From assembly GCA_963840555.1 (NCBI GenBank), contig CAWIZK010000003.1, positions 11,779 through 75,778 of the forward strand: a stretch of DNA of 64,000 bases, given 5' to 3'. Both the position numbers and the translations under genes were made by a program. Source of the stretch: an uncultured Acidobacteriaceae bacterium. Lineage in GTDB: Bacteria; Acidobacteriota; Terriglobia; Terriglobales; Acidobacteriaceae. The notes under the pieces were generated by a model that was not told the DNA's origin, ran no database searches, and saw nothing but the letters and a program-made list of their open reading frames with translations. Below, piece after piece: positions 1-14,458 of this stretch (position 1 is the first letter of the stretch; each line of letters starts with the position of its first letter).

Positions 1-360
1 CACCGCCTCCTCCAGTGCCTTGCGTGTAGCGGGATGGACCCGGGCACCAGCCAAGAAAGGTTCGAATGACTGCTGCGATACGTTCGCCAAGCGCTTAATC
101 TGACGGGCAAAATCGCGCACATGAGGGATTTTGCTGTAGCGGTCCAGGAACATGGTCGCAAGATACGTCATGCTATAAGCGTTCCCGAGACCTTCGCCCA
201 TAATTTTGAGCTTCGCATCCGACGGAGCATCCTTAACGGCCTTCGCAAGCGGGCTGAGAAATCCGAGCTGCAGATATGGTGGAATCGGCCAATCAACCTC
301 CTTGAAGGCGTTAGCCAGCCATTCCGCAAACTCTCTGTTGGTTGAAGCGTTGCTTGACAT
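1..360 (-). CDS. hypothetical protein (N-terminal 120 codons; gene continues past left edge)
   Basis: Absent from the ORF track because it is truncated. Reverse-strand ATG at 358-360, open to position 1 (MSSNASTNREFAEWLANAFKEVDW...). The ATG lies 2 nt after the TAA stop (363-365) of the upstream gene, suggesting translational coupling. Confidence 0.5.
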   Translation of the reverse strand, partial: MSSNASTNREFAEWLANAFKEVDWPIPPYLQLGFLSPLAKAVKDAPSDAKLKIMGEGLGNAYSMTYLATMFLDRYSKIPHVRDFARQIKRLANVSQQSFEPFLAGARVHPATRKALEEAV

Positions 361-362
361 GA

Positions 363-1283
363 TTATTTTTTTAGCCACGGCAAGGTCGCTGTCTGATAAT
401 CGCTGAATTCCCGAACAAATCGCTCCGCCCATGCAGCCGCCTGGGCGACGGCAGCTTCTAGTGCGTCGTCCTTATACTCGATCTTGTGCCAGTGCTTATG
501 CTTTGCGTAAGTATCCTCAAACATCCAGGTAGCACCTTTGCCTTCTTCTTGCAGGACTGTGGTCACGCATTCAGCATCTTTAGCTACATGCGGAATTTCA
601 TAAAGATGGCCGGAAGGCTCTGAATTCTCGATGACGATAAACCTGGATGAGAGCGCATACCGCATCACCTTTTGCACAACGCCTTCGCCAACCCTATCAG
701 GCTGCTCTTTGATGATGTAGGTGTAATAGCCAAGTTCCTGCAGCTTTGATTCAATCCTCTTCAGCCTGTCGAGCGCCGGGCCAGTATCTTTGCCAAGAAT
801 AAGAACAGAGTCGGAGTTTTCAAGGATGGCATCGGCGCGCTGCCACACCAGATCAAACGCAGCCTTTATCGAGCTAATCAGCTCCTCGGGCGGAGTTGCC
901 AGCGGTAGTTGCAACTTCCATCTAACAAAAATATGAACGTCCTCGGCATCGCGGGAAGGGTCTGAGAGCGGATGTCCTTCGTGCATCAGGCGCGTAACCG
1001 CACGCTCCATCGCTTCGGAGAAGGCATAGGCGGAAAATTTGTGCTCCCAGTATTTGGTATAGAGATGCTCTTCGATTTCGCAGGCAAGGACATCGCCCTC
1101 ACGGCGGAGTGTCGTGCCCGGGAAATAATTGTCGATTACCCGGATCGCTACGTCATCGGGCATGGCTGCGAGATCGAGCGCCTTCAGCGCTTCGATACTT
1201 ATCGGATCGCCGTCTTCATGCCGGAACTCCTCCCAGCCGCCTTCGGGGTCGTTAACTTCGTGGCCTTCATGGTCTTCTGACAT
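363..1283 (-). CDS. hypothetical protein, acidic N-terminus, Rossmann-like beta/alpha C-terminal region
   Basis: ORF track 363..1298 starts at a TTG. The ATG at 1283 is preceded by GGAGAGG (1290-1296). The C-terminal segment VLILGKD...RFIVIENSEPSGHLYE alternates hydrophobic strands and helices. No family recognised with certainty. Confidence 0.6.
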   Translation of the reverse strand: MSEDHEGHEVNDPEGGWEEFRHEDGDPISIEALKALDLAAMPDDVAIRVIDNYFPGTTLRREGDVLACEIEEHLYTKYWEHKFSAYAFSEAMERAVTRLMHEGHPLSDPSRDAEDVHIFVRWKLQLPLATPPEELISSIKAAFDLVWQRADAILENSDSVLILGKDTGPALDRLKRIESKLQELGYYTYIIKEQPDRVGEGVVQKVMRYALSSRFIVIENSEPSGHLYEIPHVAKDAECVTTVLQEEGKGATWMFEDTYAKHKHWHKIEYKDDALEAAVAQAAAWAERFVREFSDYQTATLPWLKK

Positions 1284-1367
1284 GCGTGGCCTCTCCAATG
1301 ACCGTCGTAGTGATCCAAGCAGTTTAGCGGATAGATGGCAACCGTTCGTGTGGTCGCGCCGCTGAGG

Positions 1368-1417
1368 GCCATAAAAGAGGTTATGGGGTCGGGGTCCGAG
1401 CCCCTCCTCTTTTGGAA
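1368..1417. repeat. copy 1 of a ~50-bp degenerate direct repeat with palindromic core CCATAA-AAGAGG-TTATGG
   Basis: ccataaaagaggttatggg is shared exactly with 2206-2224, with collinear partial identity continuing to ttggaat. It also forms a hairpin AAAAGAGG...CCTCTTTT, which could terminate the upstream minus-strand ICMT gene. Confidence 0.6.
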
Positions 1418-1473
1418 TTGATGTGTCTGATAAATTTTGTTATCGGACACGCCTCGGGAAGAGGAGCAACGGA

Positions 1474-2040
1474 TCACAGATATCTTCTTACCCGACGGCT
1501 GTACTGTGTGTATTGCTCACCATAGTGCTTTCGCAAATAGTCTTCTTCACGCAAAACCTGACGGTTCAAGAGCCAGAAACCGCTGACGACATAAAGCAAG
1601 AATATCCAAGTCGGGAAAATCAGGAATTGGCCAATGAGGATAAAGCCGAACGCCACATATATCGGATTACGGCTGTAGGAAAAGATCCCGTCTGTTACAA
1701 GCTTGTCTGCGTGTTGCGCATCTATGCCGACCCGAAAGCTTTTTCCAAAGGAAATGAGGCTCGACAACAATAATGAGAGCCCCGCGAGGCAGAATGCCAC
1801 GCCGAGCCACTCGGTGATTGCAGAATAAAAAAGCTTCTTTGTACTCACCGTGGGGAGACCAAATGCTGCTGCGAACACGAGGTAAAAGTAAAATAGGGCA
1901 AAGGGCGGAATCAGAAAGTCCGTTTTGTCCGTTTCCCCGAATCTCATGGCTGCGATTCCTTGCCTTTTCAGGAGCAGGAGCCGGGCCACAACCATACCGA
2001 CCATCAGAACAATCGTCAGAGCGGCAAAATATCGGGGCAT
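1474..2040 (-). CDS. isoprenylcysteine carboxyl methyltransferase (ICMT)/phospholipid methyltransferase family membrane protein
   Basis: 188 aa, multi-TM. Motifs YSRNPIYVAFGFILIG and EEDYLRKHYGEQYTQY are typical of the ICMT/PEMT family. ATG at 2038-2040. Confidence 0.8.
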   Translation of the reverse strand: MPRYFAALTIVLMVGMVVARLLLLKRQGIAAMRFGETDKTDFLIPPFALFYFYLVFAAAFGLPTVSTKKLFYSAITEWLGVAFCLAGLSLLLSSLISFGKSFRVGIDAQHADKLVTDGIFSYSRNPIYVAFGFILIGQFLIFPTWIFLLYVVSGFWLLNRQVLREEDYLRKHYGEQYTQYSRRVRRYL

Positions 2041-2205
2041 GGGGAGTTCCGGGAAAATGCGACTTTAGCGTCTTAGGGCCCCTCGACGCAATGCAGAATA
2101 GCGCTTCGTGACCGTCTCGCTTGTTGGATTCAAGTGAATTGTCGCACCCCTGAGAACAAACAATTGTTAAAGAATCTAAACCATCTTGACGCTGGAGGCT
2201 TGCGA

Positions 2206-2256
2206 CCCATAAAAGAGGTTATGGGTTGTGATCCGGCTGAACGGTGCCCATTGGAA
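2206..2256. repeat. copy 2 of the ~50-bp degenerate direct repeat (palindromic core CCATAA-AAGAGG-TTATGG)
   Basis: Same 19-nt core as 1368-1386, same orientation. Lies between the cas1 terminators and the ICMT gene start. Confidence 0.6.
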
Positions 2257-2272
2257 TCATTCCAAAAATGCG

Positions 2273-2334
2273 GTAGTGGGCTGTTTTGAAACAGCCCGCT
2301 ACCAAAAATGCACGCGGCTTGCTTTTGCCGCGTG
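2273..2334 (-). terminator. two tandem intrinsic terminators downstream of cas1
   Basis: Hairpins CACGCGGC-N8-GCCGCGTG (2311-2334) and GTAGTGGGCTGTTT-N-AAACAGCCCGCTAC (2273-2302). On the minus strand each is followed by GCATTTTTGG. Confidence 0.6.
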
Positions 2335-2339
2335 GTTTG

Positions 2340-3905
2340 TCAGGCGAGATGTTCTTTCGAGACTCTGACAAGTTGCGCTAACGCCTTCCAGTGCATCGGG
2401 TGCGGCACGTGTTGACCTTTACGCACTTTTGCTGCATAGGGCTCGGATACGCTGAGCCTCTGCGCCAGAACGGGCACGGTCACGGAAGCAAGTCGAGGAA
2501 GGATCAGCGTGCGGTAGCTGGATTGAGTGAGCCAAGTCGGAAGACTCGACGGCAGCCACCCTGATCGTGCCTCCCGCTGTCGTTTCTGCGAAGCCGACAT
2601 CCGCGTCCTCGATTCAGGCGTCTTTGCTGCGATCCGGCCTCTCTGAGCGACTTCGATCATGTTAGCCTTCGAAATGCTGACTCCGCACTGTGCACAGTGA
2701 TTCCTCTGATTGCTGCTGAGCACGACTCCGCAGTCTCGGCAGACTTTCTGCGGACGAGGGACAAGAACACTTGACGGCACCGCGTTCCCCTTCGCTCCTC
2801 TCCGGTGCGCTTGCGTAAGCCGCGTTGGAAACTTACCGGCAGTGTTCGACTTGGAGGTGGTACACCACAAGGCTCGTGCGACGTACTCGGCCCAGGGTGC
2901 AACCAATCTCCCCCAAATAGGTGCAGTCTCGCTCAACTTGGCGCACATCCCGGACATGAGCCTGCAATTGCCATTCGCACTCTCGAAGAAATCGGCCCTG
3001 CGTAGGGGTTCCCGAGCGATCCACGTTAGCAGCCAGCTCTCGATTTGCGGGCGCACTGGTTCGAGAACATCAAAAGCGAGGGAATCCCGGTTGGAGGTGT
3101 CCGTGTGCAGACCTAATCCCAAGCCCGGATCGAGCCCTAATTCCCCAAGGGCCAATCGGGTTTCCGATTCGAGAAGCGCGAAGCAGAAATTGAGAATGGC
3201 GTGGAACGGCGTTATGGCGAGACGCGGGCCGCCCGATAGCGGCGACTGCCTTGTGCCGACCGTACGCCAGTGTTCGGGTACGCGACGCACGTCCGCCTTG
3301 GGCCAGAGCACACGAACATCCCGCAGTGTGCCGAAATATGCGATTGCGGCGTGACTCTCCACTGTTCTTAGCCGTTCGATTGTGTCGACCTTGGGCAGTT
3401 CGCAAGTTCGGATGCCAGCGATCACGTCCGCCGCACCGGAATCCGTCAATTGTTCGCGTATGACGCGCTCCTGCCCCTCCAGCTTGGCGTTTATAAGTTC
3501 ACGCGAGATCCTCAGGCCTGTGCCGTTCTGCCACGCCAGAGCTTGCGCACGCCTCAGCCGAGCATCGGATGAGGAGGGGGGACCAGTGACCAACTGAATC
3601 TTGCCGAGACGGTCCAAAAGAACGAACGATGCGCCAACGTCGCTCAACCACTTCAGCGCGGAGAGGGTGACGAAGCCATCATCGGCAATGCAGACGAGGC
3701 GTTTCAGGCTGTGTCCTATCCTTGGCAGTCGGGCCTGGCGGCGATCCGCACCGAGGCCATCTTCGAAAATCAGGTGACCACGATCGACGTTTATCTTTAT
3801 GCCGTATCCGCAGAGAGTGACAACATTATGTCGCGGCATTATCAGCAATGGGGATCCGGAATTGCCGGATGGCGGACGTTGAGATACGTTTTTCGTAGCT
3901 GTCAT
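2340..3905 (-). CDS. cas1: Cas1-family integrase homologue (casposase-like), with C-terminal Zn-ribbon and HTH extension
   Basis: 521 aa. Cas1-like succession: N-terminal beta domain (LVCIADDGFVTLSALKWLSDVGASFVLLDRLGK), helical catalytic domain with VESHAAIAYF (Glu), ITPFHAILNFCFALLE, GLDPGLGLGLHTD (His) and SLAFDVLEPVRP (Asp/Glu). Tail has CRDCG...CAQCG plus an HTH-like end. ATG with AGGAGAA upstream. No cas2 or CRISPR array nearby. Confidence 0.85.
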   Translation of the reverse strand: MTATKNVSQRPPSGNSGSPLLIMPRHNVVTLCGYGIKINVDRGHLIFEDGLGADRRQARLPRIGHSLKRLVCIADDGFVTLSALKWLSDVGASFVLLDRLGKIQLVTGPPSSSDARLRRAQALAWQNGTGLRISRELINAKLEGQERVIREQLTDSGAADVIAGIRTCELPKVDTIERLRTVESHAAIAYFGTLRDVRVLWPKADVRRVPEHWRTVGTRQSPLSGGPRLAITPFHAILNFCFALLESETRLALGELGLDPGLGLGLHTDTSNRDSLAFDVLEPVRPQIESWLLTWIAREPLRRADFFESANGNCRLMSGMCAKLSETAPIWGRLVAPWAEYVARALWCTTSKSNTAGKFPTRLTQAHRRGAKGNAVPSSVLVPRPQKVCRDCGVVLSSNQRNHCAQCGVSISKANMIEVAQRGRIAAKTPESRTRMSASQKRQREARSGWLPSSLPTWLTQSSYRTLILPRLASVTVPVLAQRLSVSEPYAAKVRKGQHVPHPMHWKALAQLVRVSKEHLA

Positions 3906-3974
3906 TGGAGTGTATTCTCCTATGTCGGTTAGGGCTTGTCGTCTGCTGATAACAGGCGGCAGGCCCGCTTTGAA

Positions 3975-4106
3975 TTAGATTTTCTTCAGATAGGCCTCAA
4001 CCGCGCGACGGAAAAGCTCGGCCATGGGCGCTCCTGTCTTGTCAGACACTTTCTTGAGCTTCGCAATCAATTCCTCCGGCAGCCAAACCGTCGTGCGCTT
4101 CTTCAT
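3975..4106 (-). CDS. ribbon-helix-helix (CopG/Arc-like) small DNA-binding protein
   Basis: 43-aa ORF below the track cutoff, translated by hand: MKKRTTVWLPEELIAKLKKVSDKTGAPMAELFRRAVEAYLKKI. This is the classic RHH pattern (beta strand, then two helices). Sits 69 nt upstream of cas1 on the same strand. Confidence 0.6.
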   Translation of the reverse strand: MKKRTTVWLPEELIAKLKKVSDKTGAPMAELFRRAVEAYLKKI

Positions 4107-4122
4107 TCTTCAAGTCTAATAC

Positions 4123-4140
4123 GTATGTCAATGTATGTCA
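4123..4140. promoter_or_regulatory. tandem direct repeat GTATGTCA-AT-GTATGTCA (candidate operator)
   Basis: Two identical 8-mers with 10-bp periodicity, immediately upstream of the RHH gene start (4106) and overlapping the stop of the 4138..4620 gene. Confidence 0.35.
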
Positions 4141-4620
4141 CTTGATTTGTTCGCCTTTTAGCCGTTTCTGTTCATCATTCCAAATGCGCTGAACTTTCCG
4201 TGGGCTGACACCAAACTTCTGAGATACGCGGCTATAGGCGAATGTCTGCTTCACGCCTTGGGCCTTATGATGCGCAACCTCAGCGCAGATTTTCTGGTCT
4301 TCATTGGGTGTTGATGTGCGTGGACGACCGCCGGGGTCGTGCGGAAGCTGTTTCAACACACCCGGCGCGGATTGCCTGACCGCGTAGACCAATTTAGGCA
4401 GCAACTGCAGGGTGTGCTCAAACGCGACGCCTTCGGCTTCGGGTAGTTGCCGTAACATTTCTCGGGCTGTTTCCCTATCACGAAGCGCTGAAAGTTTGGC
4501 TAAGAGGCCGGCAAGCCAAGGATAGAAGGCTTGGACAGCCTCCTGAAAGTTGCTGGGACCCAACGGCCTGATGGCACAATCCAGCGCTTCGAAGTACCGG
4601 TCTATCTCTTGGTCCGTCAT
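4138..4620 (-). CDS. hypothetical protein with C-terminal helix-turn-helix
   Basis: 160 aa, ATG at 4618-4620. The C-terminus QTFAYSRVSQKFGVSPRKVQRIWN resembles a resolvase/psq-type HTH. First gene of the minus-strand HTH-RHH-cas1 string. Confidence 0.6.
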   Translation of the reverse strand: MTDQEIDRYFEALDCAIRPLGPSNFQEAVQAFYPWLAGLLAKLSALRDRETAREMLRQLPEAEGVAFEHTLQLLPKLVYAVRQSAPGVLKQLPHDPGGRPRTSTPNEDQKICAEVAHHKAQGVKQTFAYSRVSQKFGVSPRKVQRIWNDEQKRLKGEQIK

Positions 4621-4745
4621 TGCGCCAAAAGCCCCCTACCCAGTTTTGGCATGGCCTGAAGCCAAAAGGGTACCCGAATTGTTGTGGCACCCTGCCTCCG
4701 CGACGATGTATGAGACCAGTTTTGAGGTCGACCGAGGGTTGTCAA

Positions 4746-5266
4746 ATGCGGCGTCGCAAGTCCATTTCGAGCCACAAACAGGTTGCGCAGACCCGCAGTG
4801 GTGCGCTTGCCTCCTCCGACCGGGCGTTTGAAGCCAAGCAAAGGGCCTTTCACGCCATTGCCAGAATGCGCAGTGGGGGCTCTCACTCACTGCTGCGGCA
4901 CGCGAGGAGGGCACAAAGGCCACCACGGTCAAGAAATACCTCCCCGCGGCCTTACGCCAGTCCAGACGCGGTACATGGACGGCTACGAAGGGAGATCGCT
5001 ACATCAGGACTGTGGTTCTGCCCAGTGCGCACGGCCACGTGACGGTCCAGGCACGGGGCTCCGCCGAAGCGGAACTGGCAGCTGCCTATTCTGCCGCCCT
5101 GGCTCGATGGGCACGCACCGGCAAACCAACCGAATTAGCTCCGTTTCGCGGGAAAAAGGTTGGCGGGTTTGAACTCCTGACAGCTCCTCGGGCCCTCTCA
5201 GCGTTGGGTGACGCCGGCCTGTTGCAACTCGATTCGCTTTACGCGTCCTTGAAGGACGCTGCATGA
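4746..5266 (+). pseudogene. HTH-domain protein interrupted by a frameshift at a G5 run (4875-4879)
   Basis: Frame 0 gives MRRRKSISSHKQVAQ...AFEAKQRAFHAIARMRSGG. A -1 step then gives LSLTAAAREEGTKATTVKKYLPAALRQSRRGTWTATKGDRYIRTVVLPSAHGHVTVQARGS...LKDAA. Together they read as one coherent protein. The stop overlaps the next ATG (ATGA at 5263-5266). Confidence 0.5.
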
Positions 5267-5592
5267 AGAACCTCCACCCACTCCGGGCTGAGCGCAGGCG
5301 GCAGAAGAGGGTCGTTGACCCGCCAAAGATGCGCTGCATTTTTTGTCTGGAGTTGGAGCATGTCGCAGGAGGCAATCACGACTTCCTGCTGACGTTTCCC
5401 GACATCTGCCAAAAGCACCACGATGTACTAACCGAGGCGCGGCGGAATGGCGATATCAACATGGTATTTGAGCGCGACCCGGTCAAACGTGTGGCACTGG
5501 CGCTGAAGTCTGCCTCTGTATTTCTGCGCATGTTGGCCGATGCGATGTGGCGCTGGGCGGCTCGATTAGAAGATGAGAGGAGTCCAGAATGA
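5263..5592 (+). CDS. small Cys/His-rich protein, possible HNH-type nuclease
   Basis: 109 aa. CIFCLELEHVAGGNHDFLLTFPDICQKHHDV fits a CxxC...(E)H...N...CxxHH layout. Start and stop both overlap neighbours in ATGA. Confidence 0.45.
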   Translation: MKNLHPLRAERRRQKRVVDPPKMRCIFCLELEHVAGGNHDFLLTFPDICQKHHDVLTEARRNGDINMVFERDPVKRVALALKSASVFLRMLADAMWRWAARLEDERSPE

Positions 5593-6437
5593 AGAAGAAC
5601 AAGAAACCTGGCGAAATAATTTCGCGAAGTATCCCTGGCGAAGTCTTGGGGCCATTACCCTTGCCGCCCGAACTAGCGACCCTGTCCGACCATTGGAGGG
5701 AGCTTACCTATGACCAGAGGATCGCCTACGTAAAGGGTCGCCCTCTGCAAGAACGCCTCCTGCTGCTCAAGAGCGTCGGTGGCGTCTGCAAAAACGCCAT
5801 CCAGGTTGTGTGCGAGTTCCGGCCGATCATCGAAGTATGCCGCGACGAATTCAGGCAGCCCGGACAGCGCGTCCCGGTCGAGGGCAAGCCCACTTGGACG
5901 AAGTTCATTCCAGAAACGTTTGGTTTCAGCCCGCGGCGCATGCAGCAGTTGCTCGCGGACGGCAACCCGGATGGCGGTCGGCGCGAGAAATCGCCTAGAC
6001 AAGCCCACGAAGCGAAACGCGGGCCAAAGACAGGCCCGGAGGAGGACTATCACCGGCTGCTAAAGGTCGAAGCTCTGGCAGTCGACCTGGCCAGGAGCGT
6101 GGTCGAGCAGGGTGACGCTGAGCGATATCCGGAGGCTGACGAGATCTTGAAAATCACCGGGTCGGAAGCGAACGCACAACCTTCCAGGTCGTGCACTTTA
6201 GCAAGCAGTCGCATCGCCGAGCCCGGCGATACCGAGGAAGAGGGGCAGATCACCGGTATCAAGATTGGGCCGCAGCCAGATTGCTATATCTGCGGGACCG
6301 GCCTTCATACTTGTGCCCTCCATGCACCCCAACTCGAAGCGTTGATGTTCCAACGCGGTATCGAAGACCATGACGCCTCGGACATTCTGCTGCAGCAGTT
6401 TGCCAAGCAGGGACACAGATTCTTGAAAACAGCTTGA
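5589..6437 (+). CDS. hypothetical protein
   Basis: 282 aa. GAGAGGAG upstream of the ATG, ATGA overlap with the upstream gene. No family recognised. Cys/His cluster near the C-terminus (CYICGTGLHTCALH). Confidence 0.55.
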   Translation: MKKNKKPGEIISRSIPGEVLGPLPLPPELATLSDHWRELTYDQRIAYVKGRPLQERLLLLKSVGGVCKNAIQVVCEFRPIIEVCRDEFRQPGQRVPVEGKPTWTKFIPETFGFSPRRMQQLLADGNPDGGRREKSPRQAHEAKRGPKTGPEEDYHRLLKVEALAVDLARSVVEQGDAERYPEADEILKITGSEANAQPSRSCTLASSRIAEPGDTEEEGQITGIKIGPQPDCYICGTGLHTCALHAPQLEALMFQRGIEDHDASDILLQQFAKQGHRFLKTA

Positions 6438-6485
6438 CCCCCGCTGGCGGTTCGCAAACATATTGCACAAAGGAGAGGAGACACG

Positions 6486-6704
6486 ATGAGCAAATGTAAC
6501 GAGCACGATGTCATGTGTGCCTTCGTTGCCACGACTTACAGAATGGCGTGGAAGGTCTGGAAAGAACACAACGGTAACCCGTCAGAAGCCGCACTTGAAC
6601 AATTGGAGATTCACGGGGATTGGCCTCGCGGGATGGCAGCCCGCGTTATGCAACGAATTAAAGGGGATTCGCAGCTGCGTGCCGAGCTTGAGCGCTGGTC
6701 GTAA
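6486..6704 (+). CDS. hypothetical small protein
   Basis: 72 aa. Strong SD (AAAGGAGAGGAG) upstream of the ATG. The stop lies 2 nt before the polB ATG. Confidence 0.55.
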   Translation: MSKCNEHDVMCAFVATTYRMAWKVWKEHNGNPSEAALEQLEIHGDWPRGMAARVMQRIKGDSQLRAELERWS

Positions 6705-6706
6705 GC

Positions 6707-9652
6707 ATGACGAACCAAAGCGGAGGCCGGACCGACACGCCGTTAGGCAAGGAGGTATTTCTCCGCAGCCACGTTGTCGAGGTGGACGCAAAGCACCCGC
6801 CAGCCAGTTCTTACGCCGAACCCAAATGGCCCGAGTACGCGCTTGTCTTCGATACCGAGACAACACTGGACCCTAGAGAGCAAGCGCTGCTCTTTGGTTT
6901 CTATCGCGTTTGCCGATTACAGGGAGACAGTTATCAATGCGTCGAAGAAGGGGTTCTTTACCCTGACGACCTGTCACCTAAACACATGACGCTCATCAAG
7001 CGTTACGTCAGGAATTCCAAATCGGAGGTTGTAAGCAGCGACTACGACGAAAGCATCCACCTGTACAGCCGGTCGGAATTCGCGGAGAAGGTGTTTTTCA
7101 ACGCTGTCAGAACGCGATCATTAATTGTTGCGTTCAACGCCCCTTGGGACATTTCGCGGTTATCGATTGACTACAAAACTGCCCGTAACCGCGCATGGTC
7201 GCTTGTCCTAGCGCAGCGGGTTTCGCGGAAGACGGGGCAAGTGGAAGCCAATCCGGAACGCCCACGGGTTCGGGTCACGTCAAAGGACTCTAAATCCGCC
7301 TTCTTCAGCCTGAGCAAGCCAATAAGGCCTGACGAATGGCCAACGTACATGGTTGGATCCAAGAGTCGCCTGGTTTTTCGGGTCCTGGATCTGCGCACCC
7401 TGGGATGGGCCTTATTCAATGAGAGTTATTCCCTGAAGGCCATTTGCAAAGCCACGAAGACCAAAAACCAAAAGCTGGACCATGAGCCCACAGGTACCGT
7501 GAGAGTTGACGAACTGGACTATTGCCGACACGACGTGCGCTGCACCGTTGACGCCCTGAATTCGCTAAAAGAGGAATTCGACAGACACCCAATCGATCTG
7601 CATCCGGACAAGGCAGTTTCGCCCGCGAGTGTCGGTAAGGCATATCTCCGAGCAATGGGCATTACTGCCCCTAAGAAGAAGTTCGACGTGCCAGATGAAA
7701 TTTATGGAATCGCTTCGCAGGCATATTTTGGCGGTCGTTCCGAAATCCGAATCCGCAAAACTCCCGTTCCCGTCGTTCTAACGGACTTCTCCAGCCAATA
7801 CCCGACGATAAATTCGCTGCTCGGTAACCCTGAAGTATTGATCGCCGAAAGCGTTTCGTTTGAAGACGCAACCGATGAGGTTCAGAAATTCATATCAGGC
7901 ATCACGTTGGAGGATTGTTTTCAGCAAAACACCTGGAAACAAATGAAATTCTTCGCGCGCATCCGTCCCGACGGCGACGTTCTCCCGGTGCGTGCGGAGT
8001 ACAACGAGGACGGCGTTACAAAGAACATTGGCATAAATTACTTCACGTCGAGCGAGCCGGTCTGGATCAGTGGCCCGGATCTGATCGCTTCGAAATTGCT
8101 GTCTGGCAAAACTCCACGGATTGAAAAAGCATTTCGCATGGTGCCGCACGGCCGGCAAAAGGGCCTTAAGCCGACAAATCTTCGCGGAATGGTCGGAGTT
8201 GATCCACGAAAAGATGATCTTTTCCGGGCCATGGTCGAGCAAAAATCGGTGTACAAATCCTCCAATGAAGCACTCTCGTATTTTCTGAAGATTGCCGCAA
8301 ATTCAACAAGTTACGGAATGTTTTTGGAGTTGACGCCGCAGAAGAAATTCAACCCGGTCAAAGTAAAAGTATTTTCTGGCGAACACAGCCACGAGCAACC
8401 GGTTAGCACCATCGAAAAACCGGGTGAGTGGTATTTTCCGCCAATTGCAGGCCTGATTACGGGCGGAGCGCACTTGCTGTTGGCGATGATCGAGCGCTGC
8501 ATAACCGATAAAGGCGGTCACTACTTGTTTTGCGATACCGATTCAATGTGCATTGTGGCCTCGAAGAAAGGTGGTTGGGTTCAATGTCCGAACGAGCCTC
8601 GTATTAAAGCGCTTTCGTGGAAGGATGTCGAACAAATTTCCGCGCGATTTGAGTCGCTCAATTGCTACGACCGGACAAAAGTGCGCGGATCGATTTTGAA
8701 AATTGAAAAAGTGAATTTCGACACCGATAAAAATCAAATTGAATTGTTCGGATACGCCATTAGTGCGAAAAGATATGCCCTGTACCGCTACAAAAAGAAT
8801 GGTGACATTGAAATCGTTGACGCAAAGGCTCACGGACTGGGATACCTCTATCCGCCGAAGGATTCCGTCAACGGGGACGAGGCGGAAAACGATTGGGTTT
8901 TCGAAACGTGGCGTTGGCTGTTGGAAGGCGAAGTTACAAAACCGACGACCACTCCAACCTGGTTTTCCATTCCTGCAATGATGCAAATAACCGTAAGCAC
9001 GCCAGCGGTTCTCGGAAATCTGAAGGGGTTCACCAGGCCTTTTAATTTTATTCACGTTCCCCTACTTTTCCCGAGCTCCTATCCCACAGGTAAGACTCCG
9101 TCGAACTTCAGCCTCATGATGCCTTTTTCAACCCATCGCGACCGATGGCTTAGGGCAGAAGCAATCGAGGTTCATAGCGGAGAACAATACCCAATCACGC
9201 TGCTGGATCCCAAGCGACGCACAAAGAAAATCGAGGTCAAGTGCTACGGGAATGTGCTCGGTGCGTATCGCGAGCACCCAGAAGCCAAATTCCTTGGGCA
9301 CGACGGTAAGTCATGTGTCAGCGATACACGTGGGCTGTTAAGGCGAAGCCACATCATTGCGGATCGTCATCGCTACATCGGAAAGGAAACGTCGCGTCGA
9401 TGGGAACAAGGCGAAGACCTGAGCATGGTCGACTTCCGATGTGTGGAATACGCCCGCGGAAAAATGAGCGCCAGTGACGAAATCAGAAAACGAATGATTG
9501 AAATTGGGATTCGGGAGGTCGCCCGGCGCAGCGGGGTCAATAGGGAAACCGTGGCGCTTATCACAAGAGGTCAACCAGTCAAAGCCGTAACCCTCCGAAG
9601 AGTAGTGGGAGCGCTTTCGGAGTCGCGCTGGGCGCGCGATAGTGGACCCTAG
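6707..9652 (+). CDS. polB: family B DNA polymerase with 3'-5' exonuclease domain and C-terminal HTH
   Basis: 981 aa. Exo I ALVFDTETT, Exo II VAFNAPWDISRL, Exo III YCRHDVRCT. Pol motif A LTDFSSQYPT, motif B KIAANSTSYG, motif C LFCDTDS, KxY ISAKRYALY. C-terminal IGIREVARRSGVNRETVALITRG looks like an HTH. Confidence 0.85.
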   Translation: MTNQSGGRTDTPLGKEVFLRSHVVEVDAKHPPASSYAEPKWPEYALVFDTETTLDPREQALLFGFYRVCRLQGDSYQCVEEGVLYPDDLSPKHMTLIKRYVRNSKSEVVSSDYDESIHLYSRSEFAEKVFFNAVRTRSLIVAFNAPWDISRLSIDYKTARNRAWSLVLAQRVSRKTGQVEANPERPRVRVTSKDSKSAFFSLSKPIRPDEWPTYMVGSKSRLVFRVLDLRTLGWALFNESYSLKAICKATKTKNQKLDHEPTGTVRVDELDYCRHDVRCTVDALNSLKEEFDRHPIDLHPDKAVSPASVGKAYLRAMGITAPKKKFDVPDEIYGIASQAYFGGRSEIRIRKTPVPVVLTDFSSQYPTINSLLGNPEVLIAESVSFEDATDEVQKFISGITLEDCFQQNTWKQMKFFARIRPDGDVLPVRAEYNEDGVTKNIGINYFTSSEPVWISGPDLIASKLLSGKTPRIEKAFRMVPHGRQKGLKPTNLRGMVGVDPRKDDLFRAMVEQKSVYKSSNEALSYFLKIAANSTSYGMFLELTPQKKFNPVKVKVFSGEHSHEQPVSTIEKPGEWYFPPIAGLITGGAHLLLAMIERCITDKGGHYLFCDTDSMCIVASKKGGWVQCPNEPRIKALSWKDVEQISARFESLNCYDRTKVRGSILKIEKVNFDTDKNQIELFGYAISAKRYALYRYKKNGDIEIVDAKAHGLGYLYPPKDSVNGDEAENDWVFETWRWLLEGEVTKPTTTPTWFSIPAMMQITVSTPAVLGNLKGFTRPFNFIHVPLLFPSSYPTGKTPSNFSLMMPFSTHRDRWLRAEAIEVHSGEQYPITLLDPKRRTKKIEVKCYGNVLGAYREHPEAKFLGHDGKSCVSDTRGLLRRSHIIADRHRYIGKETSRRWEQGEDLSMVDFRCVEYARGKMSASDEIRKRMIEIGIREVARRSGVNRETVALITRGQPVKAVTLRRVVGALSESRWARDSGP

Positions 9653-9684
9653 CTCCATTCGGCGTTCCGTTTTGGGTACAGGTT

Positions 9685-10347
9685 ATGCAGGACGACAATT
9701 CCGATCAACCCATCGGAATTTTAGCTTGCTGGCAGAAGATTCGGTTATCATCACTCGCCATGAAAATTCTAGTTAGCGATTATGGGTCGGGCCTGCAAGT
9801 TTGGGCTGATTTTCGCCGTGACGGCCTCGCATTTATTTCTGAAGTCAAATCGGTATCTACGCTTCCAAAAGTGACCGCGACACTATTACTGCGTTGGAGC
9901 GAAGTATTTGTAATGTTCTTGGTAGTCGGAATTGCTGATATCGCGGTGGCGTATCGACACGCGATTATAGGTTCGTGGCTGATATCACACTGGGCTGTTC
10001 AAAATGCAACGAAAGCGGCGACAGCGATTGCCCTTCTCGCCTTCGCGCTCGGATTGCTATTGGCCCTATGGAAACGAAGGCAGTTATTCACATACAGCAT
10101 CTGGGAAGTCGTTTTTGGAGCTTTTTCGGCCTTTCAATTAGGGCTGCTTTTGTTCCCAGCAGTGGAGATGTCTAAACTTGTTGGACTCGCATCCGCGTTG
10201 TACGTGGTATCAAGGGGAGGAGGAAATCTGGCCGATGCACTTGAAAAGGAGACCGAAATAGAGCGTCTGAAACTGGAAATGGTCAGAGGTGCTCCTCGTG
10301 AACCGTGGCCACCATCAATTCTTCCAAGATCTGAATCCACAACCTGA
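9685..10347 (+). CDS. hypothetical integral membrane protein
   Basis: 220 aa with about 4 hydrophobic spans (VFVMFLVVGIADIAVAY, AIALLAFALGLLLALW, VVFGAFSAFQLGLLLF, LVGLASALYVV) and a charged coiled C-terminus. Start uncertain. Confidence 0.5.
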   Translation: MQDDNSDQPIGILACWQKIRLSSLAMKILVSDYGSGLQVWADFRRDGLAFISEVKSVSTLPKVTATLLLRWSEVFVMFLVVGIADIAVAYRHAIIGSWLISHWAVQNATKAATAIALLAFALGLLLALWKRRQLFTYSIWEVVFGAFSAFQLGLLLFPAVEMSKLVGLASALYVVSRGGGNLADALEKETEIERLKLEMVRGAPREPWPPSILPRSESTT

Positions 10348-10433
10348 TCGTACAGTTGCCGTTCGACCCGGTCCCGCTAGCTCCAGGAACCGCACGAGGA
10401 AACGTGATCGGCAGCCGTTCGAGCCGAGGACAC

Positions 10434-11648
10434 CTAACGTTTCTTAGCTGCTGTCTCCGGATATCCGGGCGCAAAGAATTGGAAGTGTGTGCAATAGTTG
10501 CAAACAAAAGGTACTAGCCGGATTGACCCAACTTGCCTATGAAGTTGGTCAAATCTCTGCACTTCCAAGGCTTCCGATCCGGCAATTAGTTGGGGTCGAT
10601 AAGTACCTTTTCCGCATATCTGGCAGCGTCGTGGTAGATCTAAAAGCTGTCCTCCTTGATGTATTAGCCCAAGAACTTCATCTATTACCAGCAATAGCTC
10701 GGTGGCGTTCTCTAAGCAACGCAATTGCTCTTCGACTACGCAACGGTCGAGAATTCTGTTGATAAAGGCCATCTCAACGCTATCTGGAAACAGGCGCTCC
10801 AGGTCATTCTCTGGCTTATGGTGATACTCCCTGAGCAGCTTTAGTCGGCCTGCGACCATACACCACAACAGTTTCCCAAGCATATAAACATCAAAATCTG
10901 GCTTAACATCGTCTAACCGTTCGGCGATCGGCGCCCACGGGGGCATGTAGTCACGAGGCCCCACCTTTTCCTGCGTCAGTGTTATGCGATCTCCGTCGTC
11001 TGGCGAGTAGACAATTCCAAAGTCGCCCAGAACGAATGCCTCTTCACCCTGAGGAAATACATTGGCAGGTTTGATGTCGCGGTGGACAATTCCGTCGCTG
11101 TGTAGAGAAGCGACAGCTTGCACCAGAGAACGGAACACCGTGAGGGCCGCTAATGCTCTCCCGCGGAATTGCGTAATTTGCTTCTCCAGCGAACCTTGCG
11201 GAAAGTATTCGGTTATGATCCATCGCTCGTCTTCATTCCATTCCAAAAGCCTCAGGAGACCGGACCTGCCTTGGTTCAGCACTTTGATCTCACGCTTGAA
11301 GCGAGAAACAGCCAAGTCACCAGCCCCTCCTGCCGGAATCTTGAATTGTTTCAAGGCACCGAGTTCCGAAGGGTCATCATCACGAGCCGATTTTCTTATG
11401 GCGCGGGCGAAGAGTAGTGCATGTTCACTTTGACTCGGAAAATTGACGGTTCCACGCCTGACTTGAAAATCCAAGATCTCCGAAACGCTCTTATCGATTT
11501 CCGCTTGGCGTATCGGACTCCGAACCAACCACACTTCACTTTGACCGCCGCTCCCAAGAGGGAGGCCAAGTCTTGTCCAGTTAGAGATGTTTTCCATGGT
11601 TGCAAGAAGTGTACGACAGTCGGGGGGGGCCAGCTTTTCGGCCTCCAA
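10434..11648 (-). CDS. Ser/Thr protein kinase with C-terminal Zn-ribbon
   Basis: G-loop LGSGGQSEVW, catalytic loop HRDIKPANVF, GDFG. C-terminal CQICGKGTYRP...CNYCTHF. The track start is a TTG at 11648; an alternative ATG is at 11597. Confidence 0.75.
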   Translation of the reverse strand: MEAEKLAPPDCRTLLATMENISNWTRLGLPLGSGGQSEVWLVRSPIRQAEIDKSVSEILDFQVRRGTVNFPSQSEHALLFARAIRKSARDDDPSELGALKQFKIPAGGAGDLAVSRFKREIKVLNQGRSGLLRLLEWNEDERWIITEYFPQGSLEKQITQFRGRALAALTVFRSLVQAVASLHSDGIVHRDIKPANVFPQGEEAFVLGDFGIVYSPDDGDRITLTQEKVGPRDYMPPWAPIAERLDDVKPDFDVYMLGKLLWCMVAGRLKLLREYHHKPENDLERLFPDSVEMAFINRILDRCVVEEQLRCLENATELLLVIDEVLGLIHQGGQLLDLPRRCQICGKGTYRPQLIAGSEALEVQRFDQLHRQVGSIRLVPFVCNYCTHFQFFAPGYPETAAKKR

Positions 11649-11934
11649 TAGCTAGGCTCCGGTATGCACGACTCCAGTTGTCCATACCAGAAATAAAATC
11701 AGCACCGCCCGTTTACGTCTCCCGCTCCCCCACGCCGGAGCTCCTCGCGCTAACTTGATGGGGACGCATGCCGGTCACGGTTCCGTTTTCCATCACGGTT
11801 CCTATCTCGAACCCACATACCTCGTACATTTACCGTGTAGTACCCAAAACCCAAGTGGCTGGATTTTCCCGCCCCTATAGCTATCCCCCGCATTCAGTTG
11901 ACCCGCCGTTGGGAGCGGCCTAACATTACCGCCA

Positions 11935-14367
11935 ATGGACGTAGCCGCCGACAGTTTGGTCGGGCAGACCGTGTCCCATTACCGAATACTTTCCAAGCTC
12001 GGTGGTGGGGGCATGGGTGCTGTCTACGAAGCGGAAGACACCCGCCTTGGCCGGCACGTCGCGCTCAAGTTTGTCCCGCCGGAAATGGTGCACGACCGGA
12101 AGGCGCTCGACCGGTTTTTCTGGGAGGCACGGGCGGCTTCGCAACTGAACCATCCGGGAATCTGCACCATCCACGACATTGAAGACGCCGATGGGCACCC
12201 CTTCATTGTTATGGAACGTCTGGAAGGCGTCAGCCTGAAAGAACGCATGATGGGCGGGCCGATGGAGCTGGACGACATCCTCGACGTCGGTATCCAGGTT
12301 TCGGACGCGCTGGCGGCTTGTCACGCCAAAGGCATCATTCATCGCGACATCAAGCCAGCGAACATCTTCCTCACCAATAGCGGTCAAGTGAAGGTGCTCG
12401 ACTTCGGCGTGGCCAAGCTCGCGCCCGGAGTTCGCAGCGACAACGCGCTGGACGATCCGCTGACCATGGCGGGCGATATTTTCGGCACGGCCGTGTACAT
12501 GTCGCCGGAGCAGGCCCGAGGTGAAGAACTGGATGCTCGCACCGACCTGTTTTCGATGGGAGTGGTGCTGTACCAGATGGCGACGGGCCAACGGCCCTTC
12601 ACAGGCACCAATGCGGTGACCACGATGTCGGCGATCATGACCCAGAAGCCGCTCTCGCCGCTCAAGCTGAACCCCAAGCTCCCTCCCGAACTTGAGGGCA
12701 TCATCGGTCGAGCGATGGAGAAAGACCGGGGCCAGCGCTATCCCGACGCCCTGGCCCTGAAGGGCGACTTGCAGTCGCTGAAGCGCGAAACCGAGCCGGG
12801 CATGACCGACACCGCACGCATGCGGCCGCTGCTGCCCTACCGGATTTCGAGCAGCACATTTCAGAGCACGAGCCGCAAGCCGCTCTACATTTTGCTGGGT
12901 GTGATCGCGCTGTTGATCACATTGCTGATTCCCATGGGCGCGTGGTTCTTCAAGCAGCGATCCAACGTACACGCGCGTACAAGCATCGCGGTGCTGCCAT
13001 TGCAAAATATGAATGGCGACGTCGGCGCCGATTTCCTGCGCTTCGCACTGGCCGACGAGTTGGCCAATGCCCTCACGAATACCCGCACCCTGGACGTGCG
13101 TCCGTTCATGATGTCGCGAAAGTACGTTGGCAACGACGTCGATCCGCGCCAGGCCGCTGCTGATCTTCGCGTGGGGACGATCGTAACTGGTCACTTCCTG
13201 CAGCAGGGCGACAACCTCATGGTCACGCTCGAAGCCATGGATGGCGCGAGCGAGAAGCTGGTATGGCAGGCGAATGTAACCGGACCGGCCACCGATCTGA
13301 TTGGGTTGCAAGCTGCGATGAACAACAAGGTCACGCAGGGACTGCTGCCCGCGATTGGCATGGCCGGAGCGCAATCGGAAGGGGGGACGCATCCACACGA
13401 TGCAGCGGCCTATGACCTCTACTTGCATAGCCTGGCGCTGTCGCGCGATCCAGGTCCGAACAAAGACGCCATCGCAGTACTGGAGCACGCCGTCTCCGCC
13501 GATCCCAACTATGCTCCCGCGTGGGAGGAGTTGGGTCTTCGCTATTACTACGATTCCAGCTATTCAACAGGCGGCGAAGAGATGTTCCAGAAATCGACGC
13601 AGGCGTTTGAGAGAGCGGTTTCGCTCGATCCTAACCGCATCGTCGCCGCCGGCCAGATCATTGTTAATCATGTAGAGCGTGGCGAGCTGGGCAAGGCGTA
13701 TGAATTCGCGCAGGCACTGGTGAAACGCGCGCCGAACAGCGCCCAGTCCCACTTTGTTATGGGCTACGTTTATCGCTATGCCGGCATGCTCGGGCCTGCC
13801 ATGCAGGAATGCGACAAGGCGCTCGCGCTCGACCCCGGCAATTACACGTTCCGCTCTTGTACATGGGCCTTCATGGAAATGGGCAACACCAAGAGGGCAG
13901 CGGACTTCATCAAGCTGGACAACGGTTCGGAATGGGCGGCATATGCTACGCCATCGCTGCTGCTGCGCGAAGGCAAGATCGATGAAGCCCGCGAGGCCGT
14001 TAAGAAAATGGACAGCACCGCACGTCATCAACGCGTTCTGCTCGAAGCTTGCCTGGGCGTGAGACCGTACTCTGAGGCTCAGCAGATGGCGCATGACGCT
14101 GAGACCACCACTCCTGCGTTGCCCGACGCCGAACTCATCTACTATGCGGGCGCGATCTATGCCGATTGCGGACTCAAGCCGGCCGCGATGGTGATGTTGC
14201 AGCACGCTATTGAGCAGAACTACTGCTCGTATTCCAACCTGCAAAATGATCCCATGCTGCGCAAGATCCGCGGCACGTCGGGATTCGACAAACTTCTGCA
14301 ATCCGCCAAGGATTGCCAGCAATCAAACCTGCCGGCCATGAATACGAACGATGTCCAGGCGCCGTAA
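11935..14367 (+). CDS. membrane Ser/Thr protein kinase with periplasmic TPR region
   Basis: 810 aa. GGGGMGAVYEA, HRDIKPANIF, DFG, one TM (LYILLGVIALLITLLIPMGAWFF), C-terminal TPR-like repeats. Confidence 0.85.
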   Translation: MDVAADSLVGQTVSHYRILSKLGGGGMGAVYEAEDTRLGRHVALKFVPPEMVHDRKALDRFFWEARAASQLNHPGICTIHDIEDADGHPFIVMERLEGVSLKERMMGGPMELDDILDVGIQVSDALAACHAKGIIHRDIKPANIFLTNSGQVKVLDFGVAKLAPGVRSDNALDDPLTMAGDIFGTAVYMSPEQARGEELDARTDLFSMGVVLYQMATGQRPFTGTNAVTTMSAIMTQKPLSPLKLNPKLPPELEGIIGRAMEKDRGQRYPDALALKGDLQSLKRETEPGMTDTARMRPLLPYRISSSTFQSTSRKPLYILLGVIALLITLLIPMGAWFFKQRSNVHARTSIAVLPLQNMNGDVGADFLRFALADELANALTNTRTLDVRPFMMSRKYVGNDVDPRQAAADLRVGTIVTGHFLQQGDNLMVTLEAMDGASEKLVWQANVTGPATDLIGLQAAMNNKVTQGLLPAIGMAGAQSEGGTHPHDAAAYDLYLHSLALSRDPGPNKDAIAVLEHAVSADPNYAPAWEELGLRYYYDSSYSTGGEEMFQKSTQAFERAVSLDPNRIVAAGQIIVNHVERGELGKAYEFAQALVKRAPNSAQSHFVMGYVYRYAGMLGPAMQECDKALALDPGNYTFRSCTWAFMEMGNTKRAADFIKLDNGSEWAAYATPSLLLREGKIDEAREAVKKMDSTARHQRVLLEACLGVRPYSEAQQMAHDAETTTPALPDAELIYYAGAIYADCGLKPAAMVMLQHAIEQNYCSYSNLQNDPMLRKIRGTSGFDKLLQSAKDCQQSNLPAMNTNDVQAP

Positions 14368-14458
14368 CAGGTTTTCCATTGCAGTCGGACGCGGCTGCGG
14401 TATACTGCGGCGACCTCATGCCAGAGCTCAGCTATGCTCGCGGGATTTCGGTCCCGCT

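Follow-up and report, generated by a model that had tools for sequence, protein, structure and literature searches.

Casposons are the proposed ancestors of the CRISPR adaptation machinery; about 50 have been catalogued, mainly from archaea, and a comparative study of 2024 still used 48 of them from the two original surveys. Here we examine a 64,000-nt stretch of DNA from an uncultured Acidobacteriaceae bacterium (contig CAWIZK010000003.1 of assembly GCA_963840555.1, positions 11,779 to 75,778 of the forward strand; hereafter "the window," numbered from its first base), in which a stand-alone Cas1 homologue and a family B DNA polymerase (PolB) very probably belong to an integrated element of this kind. 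Published casposons have terminal inverted repeat (TIR) tips that read GGGGTA... or GGGATATAGG... (PMC4046053 supplement). Target-site duplications (TSDs) measure 14–15 bp in the majority of described casposons. A 2016 study (PMC4779613) reports TSDs of 14 bp whose terminal motif is conserved, tandem copies that share one TSD, and an intergenic location for all bacterial casposons. Comparison sequences are cited below by their handles (L001, L002 and so on).

Family 3 (NitAL212-C1 of Nitrosomonas sp. AL212, and AceAut-C1) has in common with the present elements a bacterial host, intergenic insertion, a size of ~14 kb and a 14-bp TSD (PMC4046053); NitAL212-C1 itself is 14.4 kb long and intergenic, with the TIR GGGGTATGTTAACTTCTCCCAAACGCCGTACACTT and a 14-bp TSD (PMC4046053 supplement, Krupovic et al., 2014). 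The TIR layouts are alike—GGGGTATGTTAAC...CCGTACACTT in NitAL212-C1 and GGGGTACTATGACC...GCTACACCCC in L004, one of the complete relatives of the window element—and both tips start with GGGGTA and carry TACAC at about position 30. Family 3 Cas1 is likewise fused to a zinc-binding domain (ZBD; some members) as well as a helix-turn-helix (HTH), both of them C-terminal in AceAut-C1 (Cas1-ZBD-HTH order) as here, and small HNH-type and HTH-type genes belong to the core, though here the HNH type is assigned by motif only. What differs is the host phylum (Acidobacteriota) and the target (a promoter -35 box), and the separation from family 3 proteins is drawn by way of published descriptions. Family 2 (Methanosarcina mazei MetMaz-C1, TIR GGGATATAGGTAAGTCAAAAAAAC, TSD 14 bp, PMC4046053 supplement; solved casposase 6opm) provides the best solved relative of the Cas1 described here and shares a C-terminal HTH on both Cas1 and PolB, a TIR tip (GGGATATAGGTAAGTCAAAAAAAC) that resembles GGGGAGAGATATAGAGG..GAAAAT here, a 14-bp TSD with a terminal motif, and tandem copies on one TSD. 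Its hosts, however, are archaeal, its polymerase is PolB3-like, its targets are tRNA-Leu 3' ends or intergenic CGCA-motif sites, and, going by the papers, its casposase lacks a zinc ribbon between the Cas1 and HTH parts. In families 2 and 3 PolB is described as closest to the archaeal RNA-primed PolB3 (PMC4046053), whereas here it is of the DNA_pol_B_2/phi29 type, a comparison made by description only.

Family 1 (Thaumarchaeota, NitSJ-C1) is the one that shares a protein-primed-type PolB, related to the His1 virus polymerase that is also a top structural match here, but it differs in a casposase devoid of extra domains, in its target (the 3' end of the EF-2 gene), in its TSDs and TIRs, and in its archaeal hosts. 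Pipolins, in turn, are self-replicating elements of bacteria that, as here, have a divergent polymerase related to pPolB and a cargo rich in defence genes; they differ in using tyrosine recombinases at tRNA genes and direct repeats, with no Cas1 accompanied by TIR and TSD. Their polymerase, piPolB, is defined by SxTTDG and by KH-X8-KTRG in place of KxY (PMC5695915). The family described here is mixed: in its ends and casposase architecture it resembles families 2/3, in its polymerase type family 1. Its promoter -35 target is outside the described classes (tRNA 3' ends, the EF-2 3' end, unspecified intergenic sites).

We consider it highly probable that bases 1–11888 of the window are the larger part of an integrated casposon, i.e., a DNA transposon that is self-synthesizing and uses a Cas1 homologue, the casposase, as its integrase, and our verdict is that it represents a new family-level variant, one that mixes modules and follows a new, simple target rule. 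The family is apparently large, soil-bacterial and undescribed; full-text literature searches, whose incomplete coverage leaves room for an earlier description, returned no paper linking casposons with Acidobacteria or reporting such elements. The features that delimit the element are as follows.

1..11888, no strand: inserted element, partial; no DNA match to L076–L078, synteny with them from 11889 onward

11855..11888, minus: right TIR, read inward as GGGGATAGCTATAGGGGCGGGAAAATCCAGCCAC; found by nhmmer with a profile of the relatives' ends

11889..11902, plus: promoter-proximal copy of the 14-bp target CGCATTCAGTTGAC, in N9-TTGAC format and placed as in the TSDs of complete relatives

11898..11926, plus: putative promoter of the targeted kinase gene, lying beyond the element; it reads TTGACC-17 nt-TAACAT, with 8 nt between it and the ATG (11935)

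Direct evidence for insertion comes from empty sites. The gene to the right of the element, kin810, has orthologues in L076 and L077 (82–83% identical), where ~130 nt and no element separate it from a divergent RidA-family gene. DNA homology of the window with L076/L077 starts at ~11889 and runs through syntenic genes past 21 kb, and nothing in 1–11888 matches; this start shows that the left 11.9 kb was inserted, with its junction exactly where predicted. The RidA-side flank in L076/L077 reads ...GCGCTTTCCGC, and where the window has its TSD copy the empty site of L076 has a single CCCATTCAGTTGAC, identical at 13/14 positions. In L078 the same RidA–kinase intergenic region holds a gene for a 916-aa Big_2/lactonase-type protein (2929–5679) and two further TTGAC motifs upstream of the kinase promoter. 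The composition changes at the junction as well (GC 0.540 for 1–11888 vs 0.592 for the remaining window), in keeping with the AT-richer block that the sequence-only reading of this DNA had noticed; the limits of 2233–10426 which that reading set for the block have to be given up, as the inserted DNA runs from base 1 and the element ends at 11888.

The ends themselves were found by conservation across loci. Arms flanking 12–15 kb in L062/L020, L028, L030 and L004 share the common tip GGGGA[T/G]AG[C/A]TATAGAGGCCGGGAAAATTCCTACACCCC, and a profile of this tip yields ~30 ends, with 27 distinct ends and 21 distinct sites collected. These ends always point inward, left ends lying beyond Cas1 and right ends beyond PolB. 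The window has a single match to the tip profile (11863–11891, minus strand), and the conserved inverted-repeat tip at its terminus reads GGGGATAGCTATAG... From the right terminus at 11888, the inward 26-mer GGGGATAGCTATAGGGGCGGGAAAAT is unique in the window and has 0 matches in 100 shuffles, 27 nt are identical with the terminus of L015, and the terminus of L019 is close. Five complete relatives, 12.1–15.5 kb long, have TIRs at both ends and perfect 14/14 TSDs in every case (5/5), listed below; the window shows the right TIR only (11855–11888) and one TSD copy (11889–11902). Since the TSD 14-mer and the terminal 26-mer each occur once in the window, the left end lies outside it (the element extends over <1..11888), and a second copy of CGCATTCAGTTGAC should flank that unseen end.

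L002: TSD GTCAACTGGCCTTC, perfect 14/14

L004: TSD GTCAATGAGTTGTG, perfect 14/14

L028: TSD GTCAAACCGCCTTG, perfect 14/14

L030: TSD GTCAAACCCGGGGG, perfect 14/14

L062: TSD GTCAAACGACGGAC, perfect 14/14

In L002 a second element, whose left end GGGGTATTACGCG... starts at ~13054, abuts the same TSD, i.e., a tandem integration. The 159-nt arms of L004 had at first been dismissed as a repeat upstream of kinase genes; by the common tip and the 14/14 TSD they are true TIRs. A search for inverted repeats within ≤4 kb of the Cas1 and PolB stop codons (window, L001, L003, L004) gave nothing convincing because the true ends lie further out, and no inverted copy of the PolB side or of the PolB C-terminus occurs within the window.

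Other repeats were considered as ends and rejected. The 237-nt inverted repeat of L009/L010/L012, which includes the PolB 3' end, was first taken for a long TIR and then set aside: its outer edge is half of a hairpin resembling repetitive extragenic palindromes (REP-like), and the L009/L010 junctions lie in such hairpins. The 271-nt inverted repeat of L003 resembles, by eye, the 5' ends of IS110-type transposase genes and does not mark the end of an element. Hairpins of the REP-like kind (CCATTACACTCA...loop...TGAGTGTAATGG) lie dispersed in these acidobacterial contigs, and it is at these hairpins that the near-identical L009 and L010 diverge; they also occur in L003, L028, L029, L046 and L055, and their positions in the two diverging loci are these.

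L009: REP-like hairpins at ~121–197, 9206–9234 and 9809–9885

L010: REP-like hairpins at 2204–2263, 2994–3070, 4219–4250 and 13853–13930

Three further observations concern element ends. L002 contains a ~1.4–1.6-kb gene (~457 aa) in three copies (252–1862, 11482–13037, 13085–14692; 97.7% and 76.6% identity). Copies one and two belong to the first element and face opposite ways; copy three sits in the second element that abuts it. The right ends of L029 and L051, from different samples, have the same 14-mer AGCTTCCGTTTGAC at their PolB-side ends; one contig has the promoter-side flank and the other the upstream flank, as expected from head-to-head insertion of two elements. An independent Logan contig (run ERR11718639, 10,107 nt) begins 4 nt inside the predicted terminus (window position 11884) and has its other end at ~1778, with a ~30-nt overlap with the next contig; an assembly graph that branches at this end of the element would be compatible with variation in presence or in copy number within the sample.

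The insertion sites follow a simple pattern. In 18–20 of the 21 distinct sites, all oriented alike, TSD positions 10–14 are TTGAC, and positions 1–9 vary. A TAnnnT hexamer stands 17–18 nt after TTGAC in 8/8 promoter-side flanks examined, with a start codon 8–70 nt further on. In the window a promoter scan calls TTGACC-17-TAACAT (1 found vs 0.2 expected), and the GTTGACCC...GGCCTAACATTACCGCCAATG of the kinase promoter is invariant in four genomes. The predicted target rule is insertion upstream of, and duplicating, the -35 box, with the downstream gene retaining what reads as a complete core promoter. That gene encodes a Ser/Thr kinase in the window, in L004, at the P0003 locus and probably in L006, a protein reading as valyl-tRNA synthetase in L020/L062, trigger factor in L067/L072, and further proteins elsewhere; the element is inserted in both orientations. 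Orthologous valyl-tRNA synthetase sites were used in L027, L031, L033 and L034, each with its own N9. Together, the identical TSD copies of each element and the differing N9 at orthologous promoters point to repeated, recent, site-specific insertion rather than one ancient event. Targeting of tRNA genes was considered and discarded: there are 0 tRNA genes in the window and one in the loci (a tRNA-Pro ~650 nt from the L004 end).

The conserved core of the family, over genome and metagenome loci, is a Cas1 gene divergent from genes for fam1 (~170 aa), fam3 (~110 aa) and PolB, present in the window as follows.

2340–3905, minus: casposase, 521 aa; Cas1 domain ~30–320, CxxC...CxxC zinc ribbon 389–407, C-terminal HTH-like domain ~470–520

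4746..5266, plus: core gene fam1, ~170 aa long in relatives; each of the five complete elements has it

5263..5592, plus: core gene fam3 (o109), encoding a small Cys/His protein; keeps its place immediately upstream of PolB at all loci

6707..9652, plus: PolB, 981 aa, putatively of the protein-primed type, with a C-terminal HTH; assigned by motifs in the translation, Foldseek, and Pfam of relatives

Gene calls on the window and, independently, on the Logan contig give two divergent operons, the minus-strand one in the order 160 aa, a 43-aa ribbon-helix-helix (RHH) protein and Cas1, the plus-strand one encoding 98, 75, 109, 282 and 72 aa, PolB and 220 aa, with genes that overlap or abut from 4746 to 9652. 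Most of what the sequence-only reading had said of these genes holds. Its stand-alone Cas1, divergent from a PolB operon and lacking cas2 or an array, is intact at 521 aa (Pfam 1.2e-30) with neither of those features in 64 kb; the plus-strand operon (4746–9652) does end in a 981-aa PolB whose full motif set can be read in the translation; and the small RHH protein it placed between Cas1 and PolB is the 43-aa gene product of 3975–4106 (minus). For the HNH-like open reading frame (ORF) at 5263–5592 the Cys/His pattern is there, but Pfam gives only sub-threshold support, and that in relatives; the positions of its plus-strand ORFs were right, but 4746–5042 and 5039–5266 are one frameshifted core gene.

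The Pfam Cas_Cas1 match of the casposase covers residues 33–318 (E 1.2e-30), NCBIfam and PADLOC also return Cas1 matches, and its C-terminus has a weak HTH_31 match in Pfam (sub-threshold in 3/36 Cas1 members; HTH_31/HTH_3 weak in L013). In 36 diverse relatives (33–73% identical to the window Cas1) no substitution affects the four cysteines or E183, H267, D279 and E282, and the latter four residues align with the catalytic positions of solved Cas1 proteins and of the casposase; the same 36 share a conserved C-terminal block (G497/P501/H502/H505/W506). Among solved structures the family profile scores highest on 6opm, the M. mazei casposase (157 bits); the best CRISPR Cas1 reaches 140 and the rest ≤113. 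An architecture of ~520 aa with Cas1, zinc ribbon and HTH is found in 929 clusters of Cas1 (50% level, E ≤ 1e-30). The casposon interpretation and the suspicion of a new lineage, both raised by the sequence-only reading, gain from this and from the TIR tip, the 14-bp TSDs in five relatives, the empty sites and the literature searches with their incomplete coverage. That reading had also asked whether the Cas1 might fall in a CRISPR clade beside an array or cas2, whether PolB might be a conserved syntenic chromosomal gene, whether ends could be defined, and whether presence is polymorphic. Here all four answers favour a casposon: the CRISPR-subtype models score far below their cut-offs and 6opm outscores the best CRISPR Cas1 (157 vs 140 bits); the module sits in unrelated contexts between genomes; a conserved TIR tip and perfect 14-bp TSDs define the ends of five complete relatives; and the orthologous site is empty in L076 and L077.

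The PolB translation contains a complete set of exonuclease and polymerase motifs (FDTETT, NAPWD, YCRHD, DFSSQYP, KIAANSTSYG, FCDTDS, KRY). Only structure and family-level Pfam scanning gave a classification: the window PolB scores 21 bits against DNA_pol_B_2, below the cut-off of 25.8, but DNA_pol_B_2 is matched by 23/29 relatives, DNA_pol_B by 0/29, and HTH_26 (a C-terminal Cro/C1 HTH) by 7/29. The PDB (single sequence and family profile), NCBIfam, PADLOC and plasmids gave no significant match. An AlphaFold model (mean confidence, pLDDT, 64; residues 40–700 usable) is closest by Foldseek in the PDB to phi29 DNA polymerase (E 2e-10, TM score 0.53 on the target), with KOD and Tgo polymerases ranking below it, and in BFVD to tectivirus, His1, GA-1 and SEV1 polymerases. 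In the model a long beta-hairpin (542–572) lies between motifs B and C, the place of TPR2 in protein-primed polymerases. On this structural evidence PolB appears to be of the phi29/tectivirus protein-primed type. It is not a piPolB, an identity excluded by FCDTDS (D610, T611, D612 and S613 invariant) and by K688-R689-Y690.

Four rival readings of these data have to be weighed. The one that survives best is that the window copy derives from a casposon but is dead, an immobilised remnant kept as cargo or junk whose left end has been lost or degraded; we regard this as a possibility to be kept in mind, though not the favoured one. Core gene fam1 is broken here by a 1-nt frameshift in a G5 run (4874–4878) into ORFs of 98 aa (4746–5042) and 75 aa (5039–5266), and by tblastn the intact fam1 proteins of L062, L028, L030 and L004 match two window frames that meet at 4877–4880. 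Extra ORFs stand between fam3 and PolB, the left end is outside the view, and many relatives are decayed (L007, L008, L055, L067). On the other hand, Cas1 and PolB are full-length with all catalytic motifs, and the right TIR tip is perfect over 27 nt against an independent element. The frameshift, being in a homopolymer, could be either a sequencing error or a recent inactivating slip, and the syntenic P0003 locus has intact genes. The activity of the window copy is uncertain, given the frameshift in a core gene.

We judge it improbable that the element is a linear plasmid or virus-like replicon, of tectivirus/phi29 kind, that has integrated, with its termini serving as origins and Cas1 as an accessory only. 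Such a replicon would account for the protein-primed-type PolB and for termini that begin with a G run; the first 7 nt of the PRD1 genome (L075), which is protein-primed on a terminal G/C run, are GGGGATA, the same as the TIR tip, a likeness that may be chance. A search of PHROGs with the core genes and PolB-side cargo (i.e., the Cas1-side methyltransferase and edge ORF apart), however, found no capsid, packaging ATPase or phage-type family, and the scanned genes of the window include no other integrase, the ORFs of complete relatives having been compared only with one another. The Cas1 catalytic residues are invariant across the family, and a 14-bp TSD with a terminal motif, together with tandem reuse of sites, is the published casposase signature.

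Less probable still, and largely refuted, is a stationary host module in which Cas1 and PolB have been domesticated for defence or repair within a defence island. Defence-type neighbours do occur (SIR2_2 and YaaC in L013, DUF5343 in L009, and PD-T4-6/mad6-like kinases), but these defence-like genes are variable cargo between TIRs. Flanking genes differ at every locus, variable cargo lies on both sides of the core, and the contexts of the Cas1–PolB module are unrelated between genomes; the linkage of the two genes is kept in at least 20 loci. Mobility shows in the empty orthologous sites, in insertions at differing loci and in tandem and decayed copies, and the TIRs, perfect TSDs, differing insertion genes and deletion derivatives are equally at odds with a fixed host function.

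That the Cas1 is an orphan from CRISPR adaptation, with its cas2 and array just beyond the left window edge, is scarcely credible. The left flank is outside the view and the generic NCBIfam cas1 model TIGR00287 is passed (76 vs a cut-off of 71.7 bits), but the CRISPR-subtype models give 20–77 bits against cut-offs of 120–560, the ~520-aa architecture is shared by the clusters counted above, the empty site shows that the whole block was inserted, and no repeat-spacer array (Tandem Repeats Finder in the window) and no cas2 occurs in the 64-kb window, in 75 related loci or in the five complete relatives. Among the proteins of the window element, Cas1 is the only cas family matched.

Against the casposon reading, or against parts of it, stand several points that we set out together. 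The left end and the window's own TSD pair lie outside the visible sequence; L009–L012, which have the closest Cas1 on retrievable contigs (70% identity), are without this TIR type, and L001 and L003 are without recognisable ends. The fam1 frameshift and the two extra ORFs wedged in before PolB mean that the window copy may be inactive. Placement of the Cas1 among casposases is by profile scores against one solved casposase, and for the target a promoter function is predicted from its consensus match and its conservation. Confidence in the PolB model is moderate (pLDDT 64), with Foldseek E-values for phi29 and Pol alpha less than 10-fold apart; no terminal protein was identified, and the excised form and the biochemical activity are predicted.

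The mechanism that we propose for the casposon begins with a joining step inferred from the established biochemistry of casposases and Cas1 (PMC4779613; the 6opm study). A casposase multimer would bind both TIR tips and join their 3' ends to the two target strands 14 bp apart, with one cut directly after TTGAC; gap repair would then duplicate the 14 bp and leave the downstream gene with an intact -35/-10 promoter. Recognition of the TIR and of TTGAC might, speculatively, come from the C-terminal zinc ribbon and HTH of the casposase, possibly with the small core proteins. The element would be copied by its own phi29/tectivirus-type PolB, probably—and again speculatively—from a protein-primed start on the G-run termini of an excised linear form, for which fam1 or fam3 could be imagined as candidate terminal protein.

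A bolder reading, which we put forward only tentatively and rate as rather doubtful, is that the element recognises promoters as such (by an HTH on TTGAC or by docking on promoter-bound RNA polymerase), replicates as a tectivirus-like linear molecule, and is a natural chimera of family 2/3 integration with family 1/virus replication; the TTGAC pattern would then be more than a preference filtered by selection. If true, these elements would be a bacterial reservoir bearing on how Cas1 integrases gained leader-proximal, promoter-adjacent specificity before CRISPR arrays existed. The family as such, abundant in soil Acidobacteriota, offers many natural ends, TSDs, empty sites, tandem copies and decay products, indicates that casposon replication and integration modules can be shuffled, and provides a simple, testable target rule, a 14-bp site ending at a promoter TTGAC. 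A Cas1-family integrase with so short and defined a promoter-adjacent target is tractable for studying the evolution of CRISPR leader-proximal specificity, and a use as a programmable or safe-harbour DNA insertion tool is conceivable.

Cas1 and PolB each have hundreds of relatives, and the genome matches are all metagenome-assembled genomes of Acidobacteriota (Acidobacteriaceae, Korobacteraceae, Sulfotelmatobacter). The PolBs closest to that of the window (70–78% identity) pair with Cas1s that are 47–54% identical, and the closest Cas1s (60–77%) pair with PolBs at 34–45%; from this discordance it follows that two divergent modules recombine. Decay products include frameshifted Cas1 genes (L007, L008), an internally deleted PolB (L067/68) and truncated or nested copies (L034, L058). 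In L055 (1497–2319) a C-terminal fragment of Cas1 (430–507) abuts a C-terminal fragment of PolB (770–966), the two being oriented as they would be in a derivative, possibly non-autonomous, that had lost its interior but kept the regions near both ends. In L034 (1031–3185) and L058 (10001–11978) PolB is truncated at ~707 and an element terminus follows within ~30 nt; L058 has at least 3 partial or complete copies (PolB, Cas1, Cas1 fragment, PolB fragment, PolB fragment), and both loci look like nested or serial insertion with deletions. L036 (1006–1541) contains a tandem repeat (96-nt period, 5.6 copies, 82% matches) ~5 kb from Cas1, which in its period and lack of spacers is not CRISPR-like.

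The remaining features of the element are given here.

1..2040, minus: Cas1-side cargo; PEMT/ICMT-type methyltransferase (1474–2040), 306-aa ORF (363–1283) and the start of a 133-aa ORF leaving the window; Logan gene calls

2272..2303, no strand: perfect-stem hairpin just 3' of the Cas1 stop codon; a self-complementary 32-mer found by blastn

3975..4106, minus: 43-aa RHH protein upstream of Cas1; RHH_1/RHH_3 families

4138..4620, minus: 160-aa protein, first gene of the Cas1 operon; one family with the 180-aa ORF of L004

5589..6704, plus: two ORFs specific to the window (282 aa and 72 aa), placed between fam3 and PolB; from gene calls

9685..10347, plus: cargo gene o220, 220 aa with hydrophobic stretches, inside the TIR; from ORF translation, no family matches

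10434..11648, minus: cargo Ser/Thr kinase, 404 aa; Pfam Pkinase 1.9e-20

Among these, the hairpin is likely a terminator, and the 160-aa protein, with only weak DUF7769 and IS481-HTH matches, may possibly be an HTH protein, an assignment that is weakly supported. Of the core genes, fam1 has no family match, and fam3 shows the pattern CxxC..EH..N..CxxHH, with DUF968 and HNHc_6 matches that are sub-threshold and confined to relatives, so that it may be called HNH-like by motif only. The 282-aa and 72-aa ORFs have no family matches and are absent at that position in relatives. Because the right terminus (11888) lies beyond both o220 and the 404-aa kinase, these two are cargo. The PADLOC kinase models mad6 and PD-T4-6 match the 404-aa kinase at 1e-22 to 1e-23, and kinases occupy the same place beside the PolB end in L004 (636 aa) and at the P0003 locus (589 aa, with TPM_phosphatase); a cargo kinase beside PolB thus recurs in elements themselves inserted at the promoter of a kinase gene. 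Beside Cas1, other elements have SIR2_2 and YaaC (L013) or DUF5343/AF_1680 (DUF5343 in L009). The Cas1-side cargo of the window (1–2040), whose methyltransferase matches Pfam PEMT at 1.7e-14, is missing from the empty-site loci. This PEMT-type methyltransferase gene stands between two exact copies of a 19-nt direct repeat, CCATAAAAGAGGTTATGGG, at 1369–1387 and 2207–2225; each copy forms a small hairpin (CCATAA/TTATGG), ~30 nt are 87% alike between the copies, and the repeat could be a repeated terminator or operator, or else the scar of a small gene cassette.

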